DNA of 58,410 nt, from IMG/VR virus record IMGVR_UViG_3300045988_065473, positions 1-58,410 of that record; one strand, written 5' to 3'. The DNA comes from a virus. The position numbers and the translations under genes were made by a program. Each line of letters opens with the position of its first letter. Within the stretch, counting starts at the first letter, position 1. Shown one piece after another: positions 1 through 58,410 of the stretch. The notes under the pieces were generated by a model. The model ran no database searches and was not told the DNA's origin. It worked only from the letters and a program-made list of their open reading frames with translations.

Positions 1-55
1 CTGCACAAAAATCAATCTCCCCAGCACACGGAATCCGCTTCGTCTGGCCGCTGCC
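1..55. repeat. Terminal direct repeat, identical to 58356-58410 (circularisation overlap)
   Basis: 55/55 nt identity between the window's first and last 55 nt. The minus-strand operon is continuous across the junction. Confidence 0.95.
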
Positions 56-7207: not shown

Positions 7208-7486
7208 ATGGTTCCAATGTTTCCGAAAGGCTATGACAAGGACAAGTGGTACATGACTAAAGATGTTATGCCGGATAAAAGCCTAGAAGGATGGCCGCGT
7301 GGGCTTTTACTTCGCATCGAAGATGAGAAAACAGGAGAAAAAATCATAGCCGGTGAGTACGATACAATCAGCGGCAAATGGTTTGATTCCGATAGTAATG
7401 AAATCAAAGGAACTGTAGTTGCATGGAACGTCACGCCCGTGTTGTGGGTCGGAGACGAGATAAAAGCAGCATATCCGTTCTACTAA
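7208..7486 (+). CDS. Hypothetical protein (weakly DUF551-like)
   Basis: Strong AAAGGAGAAAG RBS, 92 aa. Confidence 0.6.
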   Translation: MVPMFPKGYDKDKWYMTKDVMPDKSLEGWPRGLLLRIEDEKTGEKIIAGEYDTISGKWFDSDSNEIKGTVVAWNVTPVLWVGDEIKAAYPFY

Positions 7487-7503
7487 AAAGAAAGAGTGAT
7501 AAA

Positions 7504-8274
7504 ATGGCAAAAATCATAGCTGTCGCTAACCAGAAGGGCGGCACAGGAAAGACTACCACAAGCACCTGTCTGGCTGGTGCGTTGCAGTTGCTTGGCAAGA
7601 AAGTTTTACTGGTGGACTGCGATGCCCAGTGCAACGCAACGGACACCTACGGAGCACAGACAGAGGATGTATGCACCCTGTTTGATGTAATGACCCGGCA
7701 AGGCACGGTAGAGGAAGGAATCCAGAACTGTGAAGCTGGTGACATTCTGCCGTCCGACAGCGCATTGAAGGACATTGACGAGCAGCTTGTCAGGGACATG
7801 GGAAAGAACTTCCGGTTGAGAGAAGCCCTTGAAAGCGTATCTGGGCAGTACGATTATATTGTGCTGGACACTCCCCCGCAGTTGGGTTTGATGCTTGTAA
7901 ATGCGCTGATCGCATCGAACAGCGTCATTGTTCCAATGACCCCTGACCGCTACGCTGTGGCTGGTTTAAGCCAGCTTTCGCAGACAATCAATGATGTTAG
8001 GAGATACTTTAATCAAAATCTGAAAATCGAAGGGTTGCTGCTGAATAAGTTTGGGGGTCGGGAAATCCTTTCAAAAGAAGCAATCGAAGCACTACCAGAA
8101 GCCGCAAACCTTATGGGAACCAAAGTGCTTGACACAAAAATCCGAATGTCAATGGGGATTAGAAAGGCGCAATCAGAACGTCATGGTCTGTTTATTGGAA
8201 ATACGGCAAAATGCACTGGCGCAGAGGATTTCAAGGCGTTGGCGCAGATGATTGTAGAGGGGGAAGAAAAATGA
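7504..8274 (+). CDS. parA: ParA/Soj-type partition ATPase
   Basis: Deviant Walker A box: KIIAVANQKGGTGKTTT. Confidence 0.9.
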   Translation: MAKIIAVANQKGGTGKTTTSTCLAGALQLLGKKVLLVDCDAQCNATDTYGAQTEDVCTLFDVMTRQGTVEEGIQNCEAGDILPSDSALKDIDEQLVRDMGKNFRLREALESVSGQYDYIVLDTPPQLGLMLVNALIASNSVIVPMTPDRYAVAGLSQLSQTINDVRRYFNQNLKIEGLLLNKFGGREILSKEAIEALPEAANLMGTKVLDTKIRMSMGIRKAQSERHGLFIGNTAKCTGAEDFKALAQMIVEGEEK

Positions 8275-8666
8275 GCGATTTATACCCACATCTTTTGAAT
8301 GCAACTTGTGTTGATGACACGGAGCAAGTCTACGTTATCAATTTTGGTTTTTCATTTAATGACCTTTCCGATAAAGAGAAAGAAATGGCGTTTCATTCTC
8401 AGTGGTATCTAGCTGAAAAGTATTGCAAAAAGTGGCAGAAAGAGCTTGCAAATAATCAATGGGCGAAATCAGAAGATGAAATGCCAGATGAATTAAACCC
8501 ATATGTTATCGGGTTTAGCAAAGACGAATACGATGTAGAAATTGTAGGCTATGAAGAAGATTTTAAGGAATGGCGGGACAAAAGCGGAAAGCCGCATAAT
8601 ATAACTCACTGGATGCCGTTGCCGACCGTTCCTGACCTTGATGAAGATTGGGAGGAAGATGAATGA
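8271..8666 (+). CDS. DUF551-domain protein
   Basis: C-terminal ...GKPHNITHWMPLPTVP signature. ATGA overlap with parA. Confidence 0.7.
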   Translation: MSDLYPHLLNATCVDDTEQVYVINFGFSFNDLSDKEKEMAFHSQWYLAEKYCKKWQKELANNQWAKSEDEMPDELNPYVIGFSKDEYDVEIVGYEEDFKEWRDKSGKPHNITHWMPLPTVPDLDEDWEEDE

Positions 8667-9235
8667 AGTCAACCAGCAAAAAATCCTCAGGTCTGCTTGG
8701 CGGGTTTGATTTCCAGCCTATTTCTTCGGGGCAGACATTAAGCCGAAGTGAGCCAAAGGAAGAAGAAGTAAGCCAAGCAAAGCCGAACGAAGCCGAACAA
8801 GCACCAATTAAGCCAAGTGAAGCCGCAGACAGCTATACACAGCCTAATGAAGCACAATTAAGCGATATTAAGCCGAAGCAAGCCAAAGACGGCGAAACGC
8901 AGTCGAACAAAGCCGTAGTAAGCGAAAGTAAGCCAAAGAAGCTGAAACAGGCGAAGGAAGTTCAACGTCTTATCGAACAAGGCGATGTTTCCGGCGCACT
9001 AGCTGAAGCTGGTCTGACAAAGAAAAAAATCCCGATGCCGGAATCGCATCAGGGCGTTGCAAGTGGCGATGGCAAGCGTTCAAAGCGCATTACCATCCTT
9101 ATGAGCGAGGAGGAGCGCAAGTACATCAACCGTGAAGCCAGACGGCACGGAATGACGATCGGGCAGTTTGTTTACGCTCTGGCAGTTGCAGCGGCAGAGG
9201 GGAAGATTGAGTTGGAGGATTTCTTGGAGGATTGA
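8663..9235 (+). CDS. Ribbon-helix-helix protein (candidate ParG/ParR-like centromere-binding adaptor) with a 10-aa-repeat linker
   Basis: C-terminal KRITILMSEEERKYINREARRHGMTIGQFVYALA fits an RHH fold. Last gene of the parA operon. Confidence 0.6.
   Translation: MKSTSKKSSGLLGGFDFQPISSGQTLSRSEPKEEEVSQAKPNEAEQAPIKPSEAADSYTQPNEAQLSDIKPKQAKDGETQSNKAVVSESKPKKLKQAKEVQRLIEQGDVSGALAEAGLTKKKIPMPESHQGVASGDGKRSKRITILMSEEERKYINREARRHGMTIGQFVYALAVAAAEGKIELEDFLED
8741..8940 (+). repeat. 10-bp-phased AGCC(A/G)AA motif array (candidate centromere) inside the RHH gene
   Basis: 17 of 20 consecutive 10-mers start with AG and 11 with AGCC. The motif falls in all three codon phases. Confidence 0.8.
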
Positions 9236-9238
9236 CGT

Positions 9239-9736
9239 ATGATTGCTTATAGACCTCATCGTGGTTCTTTGAAAAACGCTCTAAAGGAAACAAGAGTGTT
9301 TGCCAATGAATACGAAATGAAGCAGAGAATTGCAAATGAATGGAACTTAACCTGTGGGAGAAAAGAATTGAACCCAGAAAATATCGTAATTTCACAAGTC
9401 GAATATTCCGATTACAAGAGTGGGTGGCAGAGGGTTCACGATGTTTGCGTCACGAAGATTGGAAACAGGAACCTCGTGGATGAGTTAGGGGTAGCTCAAT
9501 GTATTGGATACTGTTCGTATGACATTTCAAACGCCCCTAAAATTGGGCAGTGGATAAACGTGAAAAACGAGATGCCAGACGAATACAATCCGTATGTTAT
9601 TGGATTTAGCCCAGACGAATTTGATGTTGACATTGTTGGATATGAGCAAGACTTTGGTGAATGGCGAGATAAAAACGGAAAACCTCACAATATTACATAC
9701 TGGATGCCGTTACCTGAACCGCCTGTAAAATATTGA
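9239..9736 (+). CDS. DUF551-domain protein (paralog of 8271..8666)
   Basis: Its C-terminal ~52 aa are about 80% identical to the 8271..8666 product (EMPDEYNPYVIGFSPDEF...NITYWMPLPEPP). Confidence 0.7.
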   Translation: MIAYRPHRGSLKNALKETRVFANEYEMKQRIANEWNLTCGRKELNPENIVISQVEYSDYKSGWQRVHDVCVTKIGNRNLVDELGVAQCIGYCSYDISNAPKIGQWINVKNEMPDEYNPYVIGFSPDEFDVDIVGYEQDFGEWRDKNGKPHNITYWMPLPEPPVKY

Positions 9737-9737
9737 G

Positions 9738-9986
9738 ATGGCAAAGGAGCGATATATGGAAAATTTTTATTGGGTCAAAATCCAGTACGATGATTACGAA
9801 AAGTGCAGGCACTTCCAAGCACCGTTCGTCTTGTTTGCGAACAGCAAAGAGAAAGCAAAAGCAAGAATTGAGCGAGAAGTTCCCGGCAAGTTTTCCATTG
9901 TCAGTGTGGTAGAACTCGACAAGAGCCTTGTAATCACTCCGCAAGATTTGTTTGACATGAGGTCAAAATCAACACTTTGGAAATAA
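9738..9986 (+). CDS. Hypothetical protein
   Basis: 82-aa ORF in operon context. Confidence 0.5.
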   Translation: MAKERYMENFYWVKIQYDDYEKCRHFQAPFVLFANSKEKAKARIEREVPGKFSIVSVVELDKSLVITPQDLFDMRSKSTLWK

Positions 9987-10037
9987 AAATAAACCCCTGT
10001 GTAGCCGCAACGACCGCACAGGGGAGAAAGGAAGAAT

Positions 10038-10484
10038 ATGATGAAAGTAGAACATTCTAGCGAAACAGATTCATTGGCGTATGAAGAATGGGCTAAAGAA
10101 CGGTCGGATGTCACAAATGTCAATTATGTTGAAACTGGATGTATAATTTGGCACTCTATCAAGAAAGAAGGATTCCCACCAGAACAAACTTGCGAAAAAT
10201 ATCTTATTTCCGTTGAAAATTGGCATACAGGGAAAAGCTACGTAAATGCCGCATATTTTATTAGGAAGGGATGGTTCGACAGCGTGTATACGGAAGAAGG
10301 GAAAATAATACCAGAACACGATATTGTAACACACTGGGCGAATTTGCCAAAACCGGCACAACTTCCCAAAAGGCCAAGATTCCCATTGGACAATCAAACG
10401 CCAGAAGAAAGAGAAGCTGAAGCAAAAGAAAAAGCAAAACAACTACAAGAAAAAATAATGAAAGCGTTTGGATATAACGTATAA
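10038..10484 (+). CDS. DUF551-like protein
   Basis: ...HDIVTHWANLPKPA signature. GGAGAAAGGAAG RBS. Confidence 0.6.
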   Translation: MMKVEHSSETDSLAYEEWAKERSDVTNVNYVETGCIIWHSIKKEGFPPEQTCEKYLISVENWHTGKSYVNAAYFIRKGWFDSVYTEEGKIIPEHDIVTHWANLPKPAQLPKRPRFPLDNQTPEEREAEAKEKAKQLQEKIMKAFGYNV

Positions 10485-34255: not shown

Positions 34256-34438
34256 TTACTTTTCCGGTGGATGGATGATTTTCACCCATCCTTCCCTTGT
34301 GTCTCCTTCGATAACGCCCTTGCATCTGTCGCACTTGAAATGGTATCGTCCGTCCACTTCGCCAAGATATCGGTTGCAGCGGACATTCTTATAGATAGGG
34401 TTCTGCCGGATACAAGGGCAACAGATTCTAACTAGCAT
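34256..34438 (-). CDS. Small zinc-ribbon protein
   Basis: CCPC...C...CDRC motifs. AAAGGAG RBS. Confidence 0.6.
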   Translation of the reverse strand: MLVRICCPCIRQNPIYKNVRCNRYLGEVDGRYHFKCDRCKGVIEGDTREGWVKIIHPPEK

Positions 34439-34787
34439 GAGCGCTCCTTTCGCTGGATTTCTGGAAACAGGCTGTTAAGCACAGACCTGTCGGAAGCTAC
34501 CGGGAAACTGTTCGCGCTTCCGGTTACGCTAGTTAGTTGTCGGGACTAACAACGTAGTTTTCCCGCCTAAAAGAAAACCACAAATGGTCACAGATTTCGG
34601 ATTTGCACCAATGCCTACGTCTTTCGACGTGCAGCTGCCTGACCGCTGCAATCTGTGATAAACCCGGATTAATTGAAGCCGTTGCTCTTTGCAATGTGAA
34701 AAATCTAAAGACATTGCATCGAGAGCCGGGAATAACGGAAGAGGTAGTTTCAGGAGAATATCCCATGCAAAGCAAGAGAATCGTTGT

Positions 34788-34871
34788 GCTGCGTGGTGGG
34801 TTTGAACCACCGATTGCTGGCATTGTTAAGCATTGGGGGCACCAGCATTCTCATCCGGTAGAGAACGCAAC
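34788..34871 (-). ncRNA. tRNA-like RNA: canonical acceptor, D and T arms but a 21-nt anticodon loop
   Basis: Hand fold: GTTGCGT/ACGCAGC 7-bp acceptor (one G-U), U8, D loop with GG, GCTGG/CCAGC stem, GGTGG-TTCAAAC-CCACC T arm, discriminator A, no encoded CCA. Confidence 0.6.
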
Positions 34872-34875
34872 TCAT

Positions 34876-34910
34876 AGAAACCTGTGACGAAGAGCGACCG
34901 TCGCCACAGG
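34876..34910 (-). terminator. Hairpin plus U-tract just upstream of the tRNA-like gene
   Basis: The minus strand reads CCTGTG-(GCGAcggTCGC...)-CACAGG TTTCT. Confidence 0.5.
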
Positions 34911-35009
34911 AAAGAAAGGAGTGGTATTCACACAATGAAGGGCCGATGAGCAAAATGACAAAATCTCATCAGAAGAATACCTGACGGAAGTAGCAAGCTT
35001 CCTGCTTAT

Positions 35010-35039
35010 ATTGTAAAGCAAAATATAATCGAAAATCAA
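35010..35039 (-). promoter_or_regulatory. Sigma-70-like promoter downstream of terL
   Basis: The minus strand reads TTGATT, 18 nt, TACAAT. Confidence 0.45.
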
Positions 35040-35077: not shown

Positions 35078-36745
35078 TCAAAAAGGCCTCTTGACAGGCT
35101 CGATTTTGATGATTCCGTTATACAGCTCATCGGCAAGCTGCGCCAAACTGTCCGGTGCATCATCGTGCGGAACCTTTCCAAGCTGCGTGAACATCGTGAC
35201 CTGTTCCATGAACGCCTTGTACTCTTTCGACTGGTGTTTTTCGTCAAGGAAATAGAACCGTTTGATGTCTGGCGCATACTGGATGATTCTTGACAGCTTG
35301 CTTTGACCGCTTGGCGCACGCTGGCTACGAACAGAGCAATGATAGCCTTGCTGCCGAAGCTGGCTGTCCACCACGTCACAGTATTCGTCACCGCCGTTGT
35401 TAGCTTCGCCGCGCACCACATTGATTTTGTGCTGGATGATTTTGCCCACGACTTCCGGTCTGGTCACGGTCTTATCGCCATTGTTGAACACAAGGTCAGG
35501 GATGAATACGGCATCTCCGTACACATAGGCGATAGGGCAGGCGGTGAAGTCACCACCACCCCATGCAATATCCATGACCATGAGCTTGCGATCAGGCTCG
35601 CCGTCAGGCAGAACGCCGTTGAAATACCGCAGTTCATCGGCAGGGAATAGCAGGCCTTCACGCACATAGGGCTTACCCATGTACTTTGCCCACCATGTTG
35701 CATCGTCAATGCTGGCTTTCATATCGGCATAGTAGGCATCGTCAAATCCAACGCCATAGTCATAATTGAAGTTGCTGTGTCCGTTTTCGTCCACCGCAGG
35801 AATCACCCGGAATCGGTACTTCGGGTTGTCTGCATACTGGTTCTGGATGCGTCCCAGAGGGTCAAGCACGTTCCATCGGGTGCCGACCATCAGCTCTAAT
35901 GCGCCTTGCTTTTTACGGTCTTTCAGCTGGTTCAAATAGGCATCGTACTTGTTGTTCAGGCGCTCAACATTCAGGCTTTCCTCCAAGTCCTCGATCAAGT
36001 CATCGCTGTACAGAACGCCGCCCTCGCCAATTTCAACAGCACCAGTCAACGTACCGCCGATGGAACGACAGGTCAGGGTGGGGAAACGCTTCTTTCGGTT
36101 CAGATCAACGCTTTCGTCCTTTGCGCTTTTGTCCACAAGCTGAACGTCAGGGAAGATTTTGCCCCAGTTGTAGGTCACGGGGTCGGTGATGATGGACAGC
36201 ACTTCGCCGTAGAAGCCGTTGGTCAGCTTGTCAGAATGTCCGCTCATAACCGATGCAACGTCAGGGCGGTTACCCATCAGCCATGTGATGAAAAATATAC
36301 AAAGAGTTGATTTTCCAGTTCTCGGAGCCATCGAGATTCCCAAGAAATCTACACGATGGAAAAACAAGTCCTCAAGGTCATTGACAAGCGTGTGCAAAAT
36401 GCGCCTGCGCGGCTGATAGAACTTCTTCTCCGGCGCACGATTCCATTCAAGGTAGATGCAATAGCTGTCGAACACATCCTTTGCTTCAAGCAGGTACGTC
36501 CGGCCGATAATGTCATAGACCTTCGCCACGTCCTCGCCTGTTTTCATCTTGCCCATCATGGATGCACAGACGGAACGCAGCTCACCAGAGTATTTGTAGG
36601 CATCGAACCGCTTGTCTTGCGGCAGAGCATCTCTCAGGTTCACCACCGCCTGAAACCAGTCCTCATAGACCTGCGCTTCGGTCGGATTCTGCTTTGCATA
36701 CGCTTTAATACTGTCGATGATGGCGATACACTGTTTTGGCTGCAT
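35078..36745 (-). CDS. terL: Terminase large subunit
   Basis: Walker A-like SMAPRTGKST, DDLIED acidic motif and a C-terminal nuclease-like half. Confidence 0.85.
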   Translation of the reverse strand: MQPKQCIAIIDSIKAYAKQNPTEAQVYEDWFQAVVNLRDALPQDKRFDAYKYSGELRSVCASMMGKMKTGEDVAKVYDIIGRTYLLEAKDVFDSYCIYLEWNRAPEKKFYQPRRRILHTLVNDLEDLFFHRVDFLGISMAPRTGKSTLCIFFITWLMGNRPDVASVMSGHSDKLTNGFYGEVLSIITDPVTYNWGKIFPDVQLVDKSAKDESVDLNRKKRFPTLTCRSIGGTLTGAVEIGEGGVLYSDDLIEDLEESLNVERLNNKYDAYLNQLKDRKKQGALELMVGTRWNVLDPLGRIQNQYADNPKYRFRVIPAVDENGHSNFNYDYGVGFDDAYYADMKASIDDATWWAKYMGKPYVREGLLFPADELRYFNGVLPDGEPDRKLMVMDIAWGGGDFTACPIAYVYGDAVFIPDLVFNNGDKTVTRPEVVGKIIQHKINVVRGEANNGGDEYCDVVDSQLRQQGYHCSVRSQRAPSGQSKLSRIIQYAPDIKRFYFLDEKHQSKEYKAFMEQVTMFTQLGKVPHDDAPDSLAQLADELYNGIIKIEPVKRPF

Positions 36746-36816
36746 AAAAAAATAGGCACCCCCTACCTGAAAATGTAAAGAGTGCCTACAACTGCACAAA
36801 AATCAAATATTCGGTT

Positions 36817-38031
36817 TTATTCTCCAGCTTTGAAATTGTAAATGGGCTTAATATGCTTTACAATATCAACGGTTGGAGAGATTGCGTTGATAATTTCCTG
36901 CGCTGGCTTATATGCCATCGGACATTCATCCAACGTGGATTCATCAGCTGAGGTGGTATAAATGTCGTTCATCTGCTTTTGGTATTCCTCAACGCTAAAC
37001 GCCTTTTTAGCCGCTGTTCTGCTATATAGTCTGCCAGCACCATGCGGAGCAGAGAAATTCCAATCAGGATTGCCCTTACCAACGCAGATAAGACTTCCGT
37101 CTCTCATATTAAGAGGAATAATCAGCTTCTCACCCTCTCTAGCGGATACAGAGCCTTTTCGGATAATATCATCCGATTCATCAATATAGTTATGAACAGT
37201 TTCAAAGAAGGACGCATGGGTCAGCATAGAATTGATTCCAACACCATCTAAAATGGTGTGCATAATTCTTGCTCTGTTCATCCTCGCAAAAGCCTGACAA
37301 ATTCGCATATCATTAAGGTAGGAATCACGTTCTTCGCCTTCAAGATAGCAAAGCTCATTTGGAATATCAGGGAACTGAACATCCAATTCTTTGATTTTTT
37401 GCGAGATTTCTTGTTCACGACCCTGCGCTTTCAGTTCCGCAATCAGACGTTCTGTGGCGTCTTTTCTTTTATTCTTTCCTTTAAGATTTGAAATGGCTAC
37501 GCTTTGATGGTACTCGGCAACCTGCTTTCCGAGATTTCGGCTTCCAGTATGGATAACAAGATACTGGTTCCCCTCTTCGTCCTCGTCCAACTCAATAAAA
37601 TGATTGCCACCGCCCAAAGTACCCATGCTGCGAAGAATCCAGTCAACATTGTGCAAGCTGTCCTTGCAGTCAAGCTGGCTAAGGAAAGAATCCGACATTT
37701 TCTGCGATTCGTGAACATTCATTCCAGCCGGAACTCGTTCTCTGATTACTTTATCTAACTTTTTCGGGTCGATGTGTTCAATTCCAAGTTCAGCGACAAG
37801 CATTCCGCAACCAATGTCCACGCCTACAATATTCGGAATGACTTTCTTGCCCAAGTTTGCAGTAAACCCAATTACGCACCCGGAACCAGCATGAACATCT
37901 GGCATAATGCGAATTTTGCATCCGTCAACAAAGCTCTGATTACAGAGCGTCAGAATTTGCTCAGATGCCTTGTCTTCGATATTGTCTGTGAACACCTTTG
38001 CGGACGCATATTTTCCGTCAATCGTTTTCAA
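36817..38031 (-). CDS. rtcB: RtcB-family 3'-phosphate/5'-OH RNA ligase
   Basis: Motifs MPDVHAG, GVDIGCGM, GGGNHFIE, HTGSRNLG, HNYI and SAPHGAGR are all present. Confidence 0.9.
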   Translation of the reverse strand: MKTIDGKYASAKVFTDNIEDKASEQILTLCNQSFVDGCKIRIMPDVHAGSGCVIGFTANLGKKVIPNIVGVDIGCGMLVAELGIEHIDPKKLDKVIRERVPAGMNVHESQKMSDSFLSQLDCKDSLHNVDWILRSMGTLGGGNHFIELDEDEEGNQYLVIHTGSRNLGKQVAEYHQSVAISNLKGKNKRKDATERLIAELKAQGREQEISQKIKELDVQFPDIPNELCYLEGEERDSYLNDMRICQAFARMNRARIMHTILDGVGINSMLTHASFFETVHNYIDESDDIIRKGSVSAREGEKLIIPLNMRDGSLICVGKGNPDWNFSAPHGAGRLYSRTAAKKAFSVEEYQKQMNDIYTTSADESTLDECPMAYKPAQEIINAISPTVDIVKHIKPIYNFKAGE

Positions 38032-38096
38032 TGAGTTCTCCTTTCCAATTCGGTTTTATAATGCTGTTTTAGAAATTTTCTTTATTGACCTGATTT

Positions 38097-38294
38097 TCAA
38101 ACTCCTTCCGCTGCTTTGATGGCTGCACGAACCAATTTATATACGCAAAACTCTCTGTTTTCCCAAGTGGACTTTCGGCATTCTTCTGCACACTGAATAA
38201 TGTCCAAAAGGCTTCCTCCGTTCATCATTTGAGTCAAAACACGAATGTCTTCTTCGCTCCACCACTCTGGAACTTTCACCACTTTATTGTCCAT
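38097..38294 (-). CDS. Hypothetical protein
   Basis: 65-aa ORF. Confidence 0.5.
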   Translation of the reverse strand: MDNKVVKVPEWWSEEDIRVLTQMMNGGSLLDIIQCAEECRKSTWENREFCVYKLVRAAIKAAEGV

Positions 38295-38314
38295 AAGCTG
38301 CTCCTAATAAAAAA

Positions 38315-38503
38315 TCAATAACCTTCAAGATATTTGTCATCCGGAGCTGAATTGTCCTCTTCACAATGAACCGGAACAAAAAAATCATCCCATTCTACGT
38401 TCTCGTCACGAGCATCATATTGTGCGAAAGTTTCTGCGTCAAGCAAACTATCTGCTTCAACATAAATATAACCGATTCTATGCACTTCAACACGGCATTT
38501 CAT
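38315..38503 (-). CDS. Hypothetical protein
   Basis: 62-aa acidic ORF. Confidence 0.5.
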   Translation of the reverse strand: MKCRVEVHRIGYIYVEADSLLDAETFAQYDARDENVEWDDFFVPVHCEEDNSAPDDKYLEGY

Positions 38504-38704
38504 AATGTTCTCCTTCAGATAAATCTTGCTACCATATTCTTATTTAACTTCTTTTGCAAGCTGATTCAATCTGCGCTTAAACTCGTCCGCATCGTAGTAC
38601 AAGGCGTCTGCGATGGCATTGAGAATATCGGGCTTGTCGGTGTAATCGCACAATGTTTCAATCAGTTTCAAGCTCTGATCTGACAATTTTACGGGTTTCA
38701 TGCT

Positions 38705-39010
38705 TTATTCCTTTCTCTGACTATATAAAGTAGGTTTTGGTTGTTCATCTCCTAGTATCAGCTTATAGCGGAGATACTTTTCGATAATACTGTGTCTTTC
38801 TGCCAGTGTACCGTAAATAAAGACGAGAGCATCTTTAGCAGCATCGTATTCATTCGGGAAAATGACAATTTCCTCGTTTGCAAAGGTAACGGTGCAGTTT
38901 TCCGAATGACAGGCTTCCAAGAACTGCTTGATTTCAAGGAAACCGCCAAAGTCAAGCATAGACCGTAGCGTGATGCTTCCGTTCTTAACAATCAGTTCTT
39001 CTCCCTGCAT
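38705..39010 (-). CDS. Hypothetical protein
   Basis: Start taken at the ATG just after the recombinase stop. Confidence 0.5.
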   Translation of the reverse strand: MQGEELIVKNGSITLRSMLDFGGFLEIKQFLEACHSENCTVTFANEEIVIFPNEYDAAKDALVFIYGTLAERHSIIEKYLRYKLILGDEQPKPTLYSQRKE

Positions 39011-39011
39011 A

Positions 39012-39575
39012 TTATCCAGCCTTTCTCTGTTCAGCAATCCGATACCATGTCTGGCGGGTCACGCCAAGCTGCTTGGCAGCGTCCGTGACCGTGAGAATGC
39101 GCTTCTCCACTTGCTCATGGAGAACGTCAAAGAGGTTGCGGTCATACTCGGTGGGCTTGCGACCTTTATAAACGCCTTTCTGCTTTGCCACTTCGATGCC
39201 CTCTTGCTGGCGATCAAGCATATTCTGTCTTTCAAATTCGTTGATGGCTGCAATCATCGTAAGCATCAGTTTGCCAGTTGGAGTGCCTGTATCTAGGTTC
39301 TCTTTATCACTGGCAAGGTGCACGCCGTTAGCTTGCAGCGTTTCAACCATTTCAAGCAAGTCCTTTGTGCTGCGGGCAAGGCGGCTGAAATCGTGGATAA
39401 ACACGGTATCGCCCGGTTGAACAGATTTAAGCATCTTCTGCAACTCCGGTCTATCCATATTCTTGCCAGAGACCTTCTCGATGAACCAACGGTCAATGTT
39501 ATGCCGCTTCAACGCTTCTACCTGTCGTGCTTCATTCTGTTCAACAGTAGATACACGAACATACGCTACGTTCAT
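39012..39575 (-). CDS. Small serine recombinase (resolvase/invertase family)
   Basis: N-terminal YVRVSTVEQ catalytic-Ser motif, ...SRLARS..., and a C-terminal HTH. 187 aa. Confidence 0.9.
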   Translation of the reverse strand: MNVAYVRVSTVEQNEARQVEALKRHNIDRWFIEKVSGKNMDRPELQKMLKSVQPGDTVFIHDFSRLARSTKDLLEMVETLQANGVHLASDKENLDTGTPTGKLMLTMIAAINEFERQNMLDRQQEGIEVAKQKGVYKGRKPTEYDRNLFDVLHEQVEKRILTVTDAAKQLGVTRQTWYRIAEQRKAG

Positions 39576-39873: not shown

Positions 39874-39916
39874 AGTATACCACAAACGTATTTATACGTC
39901 AAGCGTAAATTTACGT
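39874..39916 (-). promoter_or_regulatory. Promoter (TTGACG-17-TATACT) with ACGTA-N4-TACGT operators
   Basis: Operator ACGTATTTATACGT (39886-39899) lies in the promoter spacer. GCGTAAATTTACGT (39903-39916) lies just upstream. Confidence 0.6.
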
Positions 39917-48695: not shown

Positions 48696-49136
48696 TCAGT
48701 CCTCTTTGTAGCGTTTGTTCCACGCTTCGATAGCGTCTTTGCGTCCATCGTGGATAATTTCTATCTCCCCACTATCGTTCATTTTGAACTCGATTTGATA
48801 GCATCTATCAGGAATTGTGGCTTTGCATTTAGAGCATCGGATATTAAATTCATACCCTCGCAGAAGGTTGCATGAAGATGCGGTATTAACGGAAAATACA
48901 GCTTTTCCACCGCAAAACGGGCATCTCTTAAGTTCTTCCATCTTTAATCCTCCATTAAACAAGCACTCAGCGTCAGGTTCACGCAGCCAACCTTCGCCCG
49001 GAATGTTGACTATCTCATAATACTGCCGCGCAACGTAGATTGTTTTCTGCCCATCCTCAGCGATCAGACCGACAATCAGATAGTTGCCAGCAGCCATAAA
49101 GAACCAAGGGTTGCTCTTGTAGGTCTCGCCCTTCAT
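48696..49136 (-). CDS. Lar-family restriction-alleviation-like protein with an extra N-terminal domain
   Basis: CPFCGGKAVF...IRCSKCKATIP...DAIEAWNKR matches the Lar pattern. Confidence 0.6.
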   Translation of the reverse strand: MKGETYKSNPWFFMAAGNYLIVGLIAEDGQKTIYVARQYYEIVNIPGEGWLREPDAECLFNGGLKMEELKRCPFCGGKAVFSVNTASSCNLLRGYEFNIRCSKCKATIPDRCYQIEFKMNDSGEIEIIHDGRKDAIEAWNKRYKED

Positions 49137-58355: not shown

Positions 58356-58410
58356 CTGCACAAAAATCAATCTCCCCAGCACACGGAATCCGCTTCGTCT
58401 GGCCGCTGCC
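58356..58410. repeat. Terminal direct repeat copy (identical to 1-55)
   Basis: Exact identity read directly. Confidence 0.95.

Follow-up and report, generated by a model that had tools for sequence, protein, structure and literature searches.

We analysed a 58,410-nt viral DNA (IMG/VR record IMGVR_UViG_3300045988_065473, positions 1 to 58,410; hereafter the window) and focused on a minus-strand gene at 36817..38031, directly before the terminase gene terL, whose 404-aa product belongs to the RtcB family of RNA ligases. The gene is a real, intact and selected rtcB, carried as an optional cassette by a phage that is common in the human gut. We assign a probability of about 0.55 to the reading that its product reseals tRNA, rRNA or mRNA cut by metal-independent ribonucleases during infection, the ligase activity, the substrates and the counter-defence role all being predicted. 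On its own, rtcB is an unremarkable case of a phage accessory function that is well annotated, and phage RtcB proteins are already well known. The more unusual object near the gene is an unclassified structured RNA that ends in a tRNA-shaped 3′ module without an anticodon.

Identity and integrity of rtcB

In the list of open reading frames (ORFs) the gene runs from a TTG start to a TAA stop. The TTG is the first start codon past an in-frame TAA, and an AAGGAG sequence lies 8 nt upstream of it. The initial annotation had recognised the protein by six motifs (MPDVHAG, GVDIGCGM, GGGNHFIE, HTGSRNLG, HNYI and SAPHGAGR), all of which are present in the translation, and profile searches bore out the family assignment. 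The Pfam model RtcB (PF01139) matched with E=1.9e-63 and 215.6 bits, against a cut-off of 27, and PHROG 1075 ('tRNA splicing ligase') matched residues 3-404 with E=4e-134. According to Pfam the whole protein is RtcB and contains no terS-type domain. With NCBIfam, the product scored under the curated cut-off of every specific RtcB model, for instance PRK09588 (125 bits, cut-off 407). It likewise falls outside the subfamily TIGR03073 'release_rtcB' (100.6 bits against a cut-off of 271.8), which, going by the name of the model, we take to be a release-factor-linked RtcB paralogue.

In an alignment of 35 RtcB homologues with identities of 58-84%, residues D45, H47, D72, C75, N143, H144, H161, H280, H330, R334 and R338 are invariant. 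Among the metal- and GTP-site residues, profile searches against PDB sequences aligned D45, H47, D72 and C75 with D65, H67, D95 and C98 of the Pyrococcus horikoshii protein, and N143, H144 and H161 with its N202, H203 and H234. H330, the nucleophilic histidine of the HGAGR motif, and R334 aligned with H404, the GMP-accepting histidine, and R408. For H280, which is part of the HNY motif, the equivalence to H329 is taken from the motif and not from a printed alignment. The AlphaFold2 model of the product (pLDDT 87, pTM 0.85) had only RtcB structures among its top 16 fold matches in the PDB (E from 8e-22 to 6e-15, TM 0.6-0.73), and the next match had E=0.2. Invariant residues and fold both agree with the intact metal and His-GMP sites that had been anticipated. 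All of this points to an intact stand-alone RtcB with a complete active site, which would be expected to be enzymatically active.

All ten phage copies, that of the window and nine others, are intact ORFs of 404 codons with the same TTG start, and the start as well as the ribosome-binding site are kept in every copy. When the window copy was compared with the nine others, dN/dS was 0.02-0.06 at a dS of 0.2-0.55. Phage rtcB is under strong purifying selection. The patchy distribution of the gene and its insertion between stretches of microhomology, both described below, would also fit a neutral passenger that was acquired by illegitimate recombination and has no role for the phage. However, the low dN/dS over ten intact copies at this divergence and the conserved translation start make such a passenger very improbable.

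Variation in the architecture of close homologues was also observed. The best NCBIfam match of the window protein is an 'intein-containing RtcB' model. In GenBank MT835481.1 (59229..61403) the gene of a close homologue is present in two pieces over 2175 nt, and two further close homologues, P0012 and P0016, are unusually extended (616 and 683 aa). The split and extended homologues, together with the best NCBIfam match, suggest that intein- or intron-bearing RtcB variants exist in this clade.

Distribution of RtcB homologues

Proteins 98% identical to the window RtcB are found within a cluster of 1230 sequences, one of which was labelled RtcB by JGI. More distant homologues occur in different surroundings. 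Those with 75-76% identity lie in the early/replication module of phages that encode DNA polymerase III, a 62% identical homologue (P0035) lies at the end of integrated prophages beside the host genes tgt/yajC, and homologues with 59-60% identity are stand-alone chromosomal genes in Clostridia, where they are found without RtcA or RtcR. Of 50,697 deposited phage genomes, 692 hold an RtcB homologue according to tBLASTn; among them are those of mycobacteriophages, Bacillus, Listeria and Enterococcus phages, haloviruses and jumbo phages. The gene has been recruited into unrelated phage contexts, which we count in favour of a role in RNA repair during infection.

A hypervariable interval between a serine recombinase and terL

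Relatives of the window were collected by a terL-based scan of IMG/VR, which yielded more than 590; the best 80, with terL at least 97% identical, were examined. Nine of these carry rtcB and 71 lack it. On the minus strand of the window the gene order is HTH protein (89 aa), serine recombinase (187 aa), ORFs of 110, 53, 62 and 65 aa, rtcB and terL. The large terminase subunit TerL (35078..36745, minus) was identified by PHROG 38 (E=1e-54), by a T7-type terminase nuclease domain in Pfam and by the NCBIfam model termin_lrg_T7. Its longest ORF begins at 36799, the likely start being the ATG at 36745, and it comes directly after rtcB on the same strand, exactly as the initial annotation had described.

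The recombinase (39012..39575, minus) is of the resolvase/invertase type (Pfam Resolvase, E=1.3e-42; PHROG 125 'DNA invertase', E=2e-61). It is present in most relatives and thus nearly core to the lineage, and it forms the left edge of the variable interval, with terL as the right edge. Across 71 relatives the distance between the two ranges from about 200 to 3300 bp and is below 500 bp in 13. The interval contains at least 12 unrelated cassette or ORF families, nearly all without known domains. The four small ORFs that share it with rtcB in the window (110, 53, 62 and 65 aa; 38097..39037, minus) have no family matches; those of 110 and 53 aa are found in some relatives only and those of 62 and 65 aa in none of the 80.

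The position of rtcB within the interval varies as well. At least four arrangements were found, among them recombinase-rtcB-terL, recombinase-rtcB-orf53-terL and recombinase-orf110-rtcB-terL, and the gene order of the window itself does not occur among the 80 relatives. Near-identical phages have a YjcQ-like gene or nothing at this position. Two human-faecal phage contigs, whose terL and portal genes are 93-94% identical, also lack rtcB and have a 105-aa YjcQ-family gene directly before terL. The interval between recombinase and terL is a hypervariable accessory-gene hotspot. It had been suggested that rtcB occupies the slot in which terS normally sits, but because the contents of the interval are small accessory genes that change from phage to phage, and most relatives have no rtcB, this is not a terS position. 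The location of rtcB before terL is a chance outcome of cassette traffic.

This also bears on a possible function at DNA ends. Joining or capping of DNA 3′-phosphate ends has been reported for Escherichia coli RtcB, and the window protein could act in the same way, helping the phage genome to withstand nuclease damage or aiding processing related to packaging. The single observation in favour of such a function is the place of rtcB beside terL. However, that place is not conserved, since most relatives lack the gene and other phages carry it in unrelated modules, and nothing ties rtcB to the terminase. We therefore regard a DNA-end function as extremely improbable.

The borders of the insertion could be defined precisely. 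A 12-nt direct repeat, ATAAAACCGAAT, is found on both sides of the gene. The upstream copy (38048..38059, minus) marks the left boundary and is followed by the AAGGAG ribosome-binding site, and the downstream copy (36809..36820, minus) marks the right boundary and overlaps the rtcB stop codon. Alignments with L001, a relative that lacks rtcB, and with the rearranged relative L003 lose homology at 38059 and 36810, and relatives without rtcB retain one copy of ATAAAACCGAAT. The repeat thus delimits an accessory cassette of about 1.25 kb with rtcB as its only gene. In 61 of the 80 relatives, the motif core AAAACCGAA is located 72-74 nt upstream of the terL ATG. The motif is present once in 45 of the 80 loci, and most other cassette junctions do not have it.

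The simplest reading is that the cassette is gained and lost through recombination at a short shared sequence, and we favour short-homology recombination between co-infecting relatives. As most cassette junctions are free of the motif, we do not propose a dedicated site-specific system. Alternatively, the serine recombinase and the short repeats may form an integron-like cassette-shuffling system. The 12-nt repeat was also inspected by eye as a recombinase site and rejected, having weak half-site similarity to hix/gix-type sites and no clear dyad symmetry. When the other cassettes of the hotspot were compared with Pfam, only YjcQ and a weak DUF551 match were recognised, and for this reason the hotspot cannot at present be called an anti-defence island.

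Transcription of rtcB and maintenance of the element

Between rtcB and terL, a terminator scan detected a terminator-like hairpin of 15 pairs followed by U7 (36752..36789, minus; ΔG −25.2 kcal/mol, z = −3.4). This element is kept in relatives, ends at the ATG that starts terL and sequesters the G-rich ribosome-binding site of terL. The hairpin may act as a regulated entry point to late gene expression. At the other end of the region, a consensus scan alone identified a promoter-like site (TTGACG-17-TATACT with an upstream TG; 39874..39902, minus) ahead of the HTH, recombinase and cassette genes, and this site is a candidate promoter for rtcB. The hairpin before terL and the upstream promoter-like site suggest that rtcB may belong to the HTH-recombinase unit and not to the late operon, in which it had first been placed; its upstream neighbours are the recombinase and the small accessory ORFs.

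The two ends of the window overlap by 55 nt (1..55 and 58356..58410), so that the assembly is complete and circular, with a length of about 58.36 kb. Its genes include those for a Rep_3 plasmid initiator (6041..7162), ParA (7423..8274), a DnaB-type helicase and antirepressors. Pfam was run on about 60 of its 81 candidate ORFs, and no integrase was seen among these. Given the Rep_3 initiator, ParA and this lack of a visible integrase, the element is probably a phage-plasmid that is maintained as a plasmid.

These features lead to the main rival of a role during infection. In this alternative rtcB is a 'moron' that is expressed, with the recombinase, from the resident phage-plasmid and protects the host and the element from ribotoxins instead of serving lytic growth. 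Such ribotoxins could come from competing bacteria, other mobile elements or toxin-antitoxin systems. Probable plasmid maintenance agrees with this, as does the order of genes, rtcB coming after a maintenance-type serine recombinase and upstream of the hairpin that precedes terL. Moreover, the prophage-end location of the 62% identical P0035 beside host genes is a typical moron position, and chromosomal stand-alone homologues are known in Clostridia. On the other hand, a homologue is found in the replication module of a phage that encodes a DNA polymerase, where sampled flanks of 13-17 kb show no lysogeny genes. On balance we consider expression in the resident state an unlikely explanation for the presence of rtcB, though the foremost competitor of repair during infection.

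Proposed RNA repair against ribonuclease defences

From the family mechanism, the product would use GTP and Mn2+ to ligate an RNA 3′-phosphate or 2′,3′-cyclic-phosphate end to a 5′-OH end. His330 would first be guanylylated, the GMP would then be passed to the RNA 3′-phosphate, and attack by the 5′-OH would finally seal the break. This chemistry of guanylylation, transfer and attack is established for the RtcB proteins of E. coli and P. horikoshii. The breaks could come from PrrC/RloC-type anticodon nucleases, from HEPN effectors that belong to abortive-infection or CRISPR systems, or from toxin ribonucleases, and resealing them would keep translation going for the phage. RNA-cleaving defences are widespread and comprise anticodon nucleases, HEPN effectors, tRNA-cutting retrons, PARIS and Cas13.

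Counter-defence by resealing of 2′,3′-cyclic-phosphate/5′-OH breaks, as put forward in the initial annotation, is reasonable. VapC, which had been listed among the possible targets, is a doubtful one, because PIN-domain nucleases are metal-dependent and generally leave 3′-OH/5′-phosphate ends that RtcB cannot join. We also counted in favour of an anti-defence role a second gene of this type in the genome, which encodes a Lar-like restriction-alleviation domain protein (48696..49136, minus). The idea that phage RtcB acts in counter-defence is not new; it was published in 2011 for mycobacteriophages (PMC3203893) and in 2021 for the RtcB of jumbo phages (PMC7824862).

Several points weigh against repair during infection. 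The literature that we searched contained no experimental test of a phage RtcB. Transcription of the window gene may be coupled to that of the recombinase and not to that of the lytic genes, which would fit expression from the resident element. It may also simply retain the housekeeping repair role of the host enzyme, a possibility that arises from the 59-60% identical copies being ordinary stand-alone chromosomal genes in Clostridia. Finally, a scan of genome collections for the host gave a nearest match of 59% identity, all matches coming from Clostridia and other gut or rumen taxa. A recognisable RNA-cleaving toxin encoded by the phage-plasmid itself was not found among the scanned ORFs.

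The lineage is very abundant in human-gut metagenomes and contains natural near-isogenic pairs with and without rtcB. Owing to this abundance and to these pairs, it could be used as a comparative system once the host is identified.

Comparison with cellular and phage RNA repair systems

The window protein shares the Pfam family, the fold, the nucleophilic histidine and the metal ligands with cellular RtcB proteins, such as those of E. coli and P. horikoshii (PDB 1uc2/4dwq) and human RTCB, but is only about 20% identical to the solved structures. With 404 aa it is a short bacterial form, close in length to E. coli RtcB (about 408 aa). E. coli RtcB is not known to have an archease partner, and the same appears to hold for the window protein: neither archease nor RtcA, whose absence nearby the initial annotation had already remarked on, was detected among the scanned ORFs, nor were Ro/TROVE, Pnkp or Hen1. 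In contrast to the cellular enzymes, the gene is carried by a phage and lacks RtcA and RtcR. As no domain of either protein was found among these ORFs, it is not part of a recognisable Rtc operon.

Among phages, RtcB proteins of the same family (PHROG 1075) and with the same presumed counter-defence role occur in subcluster K1 mycobacteriophages and SPO1-like Bacillus phages, and further carriers are large Listeria and Enterococcus phages, haloviruses and jumbo phages. Identity of the window protein to annotated, named phage copies does not exceed 50%, and it reaches 70% for one unannotated record of a human-faecal phage. Whereas the big lytic phages carry rtcB in large regions of nucleic-acid metabolism, the window gene is a single-gene cassette in a mid-sized gut phage-plasmid. 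It also differs from other phage RtcB genes in having no phage tRNA gene alongside, ARAGORN finding zero tRNA genes in the whole window.

Repair of PrrC-cut tRNA-Lys by T4 Pnkp and Rnl1 is the established precedent for a phage enzyme that reseals RNA cut by a host suicide nuclease, and the logic proposed here is the same. However, the enzymes are unrelated and the analogy is functional only. In the T4 route the ends are healed and then joined by an ATP-dependent ligase, whereas RtcB would join 3′-phosphate to 5′-OH ends directly and use GTP.

A structured RNA downstream of terL

Past terL, the minus strand continues with about 560 nt of non-coding DNA, a 60-aa zinc-ribbon ORF, the portal gene and the capsid and tail genes. 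The non-coding part contains an RNA locus (34585..35039, minus), which lies outside the rtcB cassette and was delineated by alignment, consensus folding, covariation controls and single-sequence folds. The gap between terL and portal opens with a conserved sigma-70-type promoter (35039..35010), followed by about 400 nt of RNA. Within it, a tRNA-like domain (34871..34783), made of an invariant 7-bp acceptor-like stem, a short hairpin, a long-loop arm and a T-arm, is followed by a long hairpin and then by a tRNA position. The latter holds tRNA-Met(CAT) in 69 of 79 relatives. In the window it is filled by a 73-nt tRNA-shaped element (34657..34585, minus), which has an acceptor stem, an encoded ACCA end and a GAAA tetraloop in place of the anticodon loop and is called by neither ARAGORN nor Rfam. 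A second group of alleles (L035, L038, L039 and L055) independently has a 3-nt loop. The anticodon-less element may be a decoy, or a handle by which RNase P/Z processes the upstream RNA.

The consensus structure comprises 57 pairs, with 94% pairing. We counted 20 double-changed pairs, compared with 9.8 ± 2.1 in shuffles (none of 500 reached 20) and 3-8 in slid controls. Alleles of the RNA diverge by 11-49%, as against at least 97% identity in the flanking terL. Covariation gives strong support to the view that this is a real structured RNA. At gathering thresholds Rfam matched nothing in the whole window, a permissive scan (E up to 10) of the terL-portal gap gave chance matches only, and a permissive scan of five related loci gave the tRNA only. 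On the basis of these scans, the large RNA falls outside every Rfam family, including ROOL, GOLLD and Y RNA. Its likeness to ROOL and GOLLD is limited to its large size, its occurrence in phages and its place next to a tRNA (PMC5737381).

The initial annotation had proposed a pairing of RNA and ligase reminiscent of the rsr-yrlA-rtcB operons. A tRNA-like RNA does exist near rtcB, at 34657..34585, and the presence of an rtcB gene near an RNA with a tRNA-like domain is indeed a likeness to these operons. The pairing itself did not hold up, as the RNA is core to the lineage, being present in essentially all relatives, about 89% of which have no rtcB, and none of about 90 rtcB loci in other lineages has its core motif. 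RNA and ligase do not co-vary in presence, and the RNA lies beyond terL with its own promoter. With no Ro/TROVE protein found and no Rfam match at the RNA, the window locus is not a member of the rsr-yrlA-rtcB module.

The same observations bear on whether RtcB could ligate, circularise or repair RNA of the phage itself, namely the adjacent structured RNA or the phage tRNA-Met or tRNA-like element. The idea is invited by the RNA itself, which is supported by covariation, contains two tRNA-shaped modules and lies on the same strand, 1.8 kb downstream. rtcB is also somewhat commoner beside alleles without a callable tRNA (3 of 10, against 7 of 69 others), a difference that is not significant and comes from loci that are not independent. 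Set against the many relatives that have the RNA and no ligase, the other lineages that have the ligase and no RNA motif, and the missing Ro/TROVE and Rfam matches, processing of the phage's own RNA seems improbable. We regard as quite improbable a two-part, RNA-based counter-defence, in which the rtcB cassette would work with the core RNA locus through re-ligation or circularisation, or by restoring a decoy or substitute tRNA after attack by a host anticodon nuclease.

Further observations on the genome

Within terL, the segment 36316..36504 contains an indel of about 43 aa in comparison with the relative L002. In L001, terL is split into two overlapping ORFs, which reflects a frameshift or an assembly error in L001. 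Three adjacent paralogues with a DUF551 domain are encoded on the plus strand (8211..10484). The 60-aa ORF between the RNA locus and the portal gene (34256..34438, minus) has four CxxC-type cysteines and is zinc-ribbon-like. About half of the relatives have this ORF, and L002 has a different Cys-rich ORF of 62 aa at this place.

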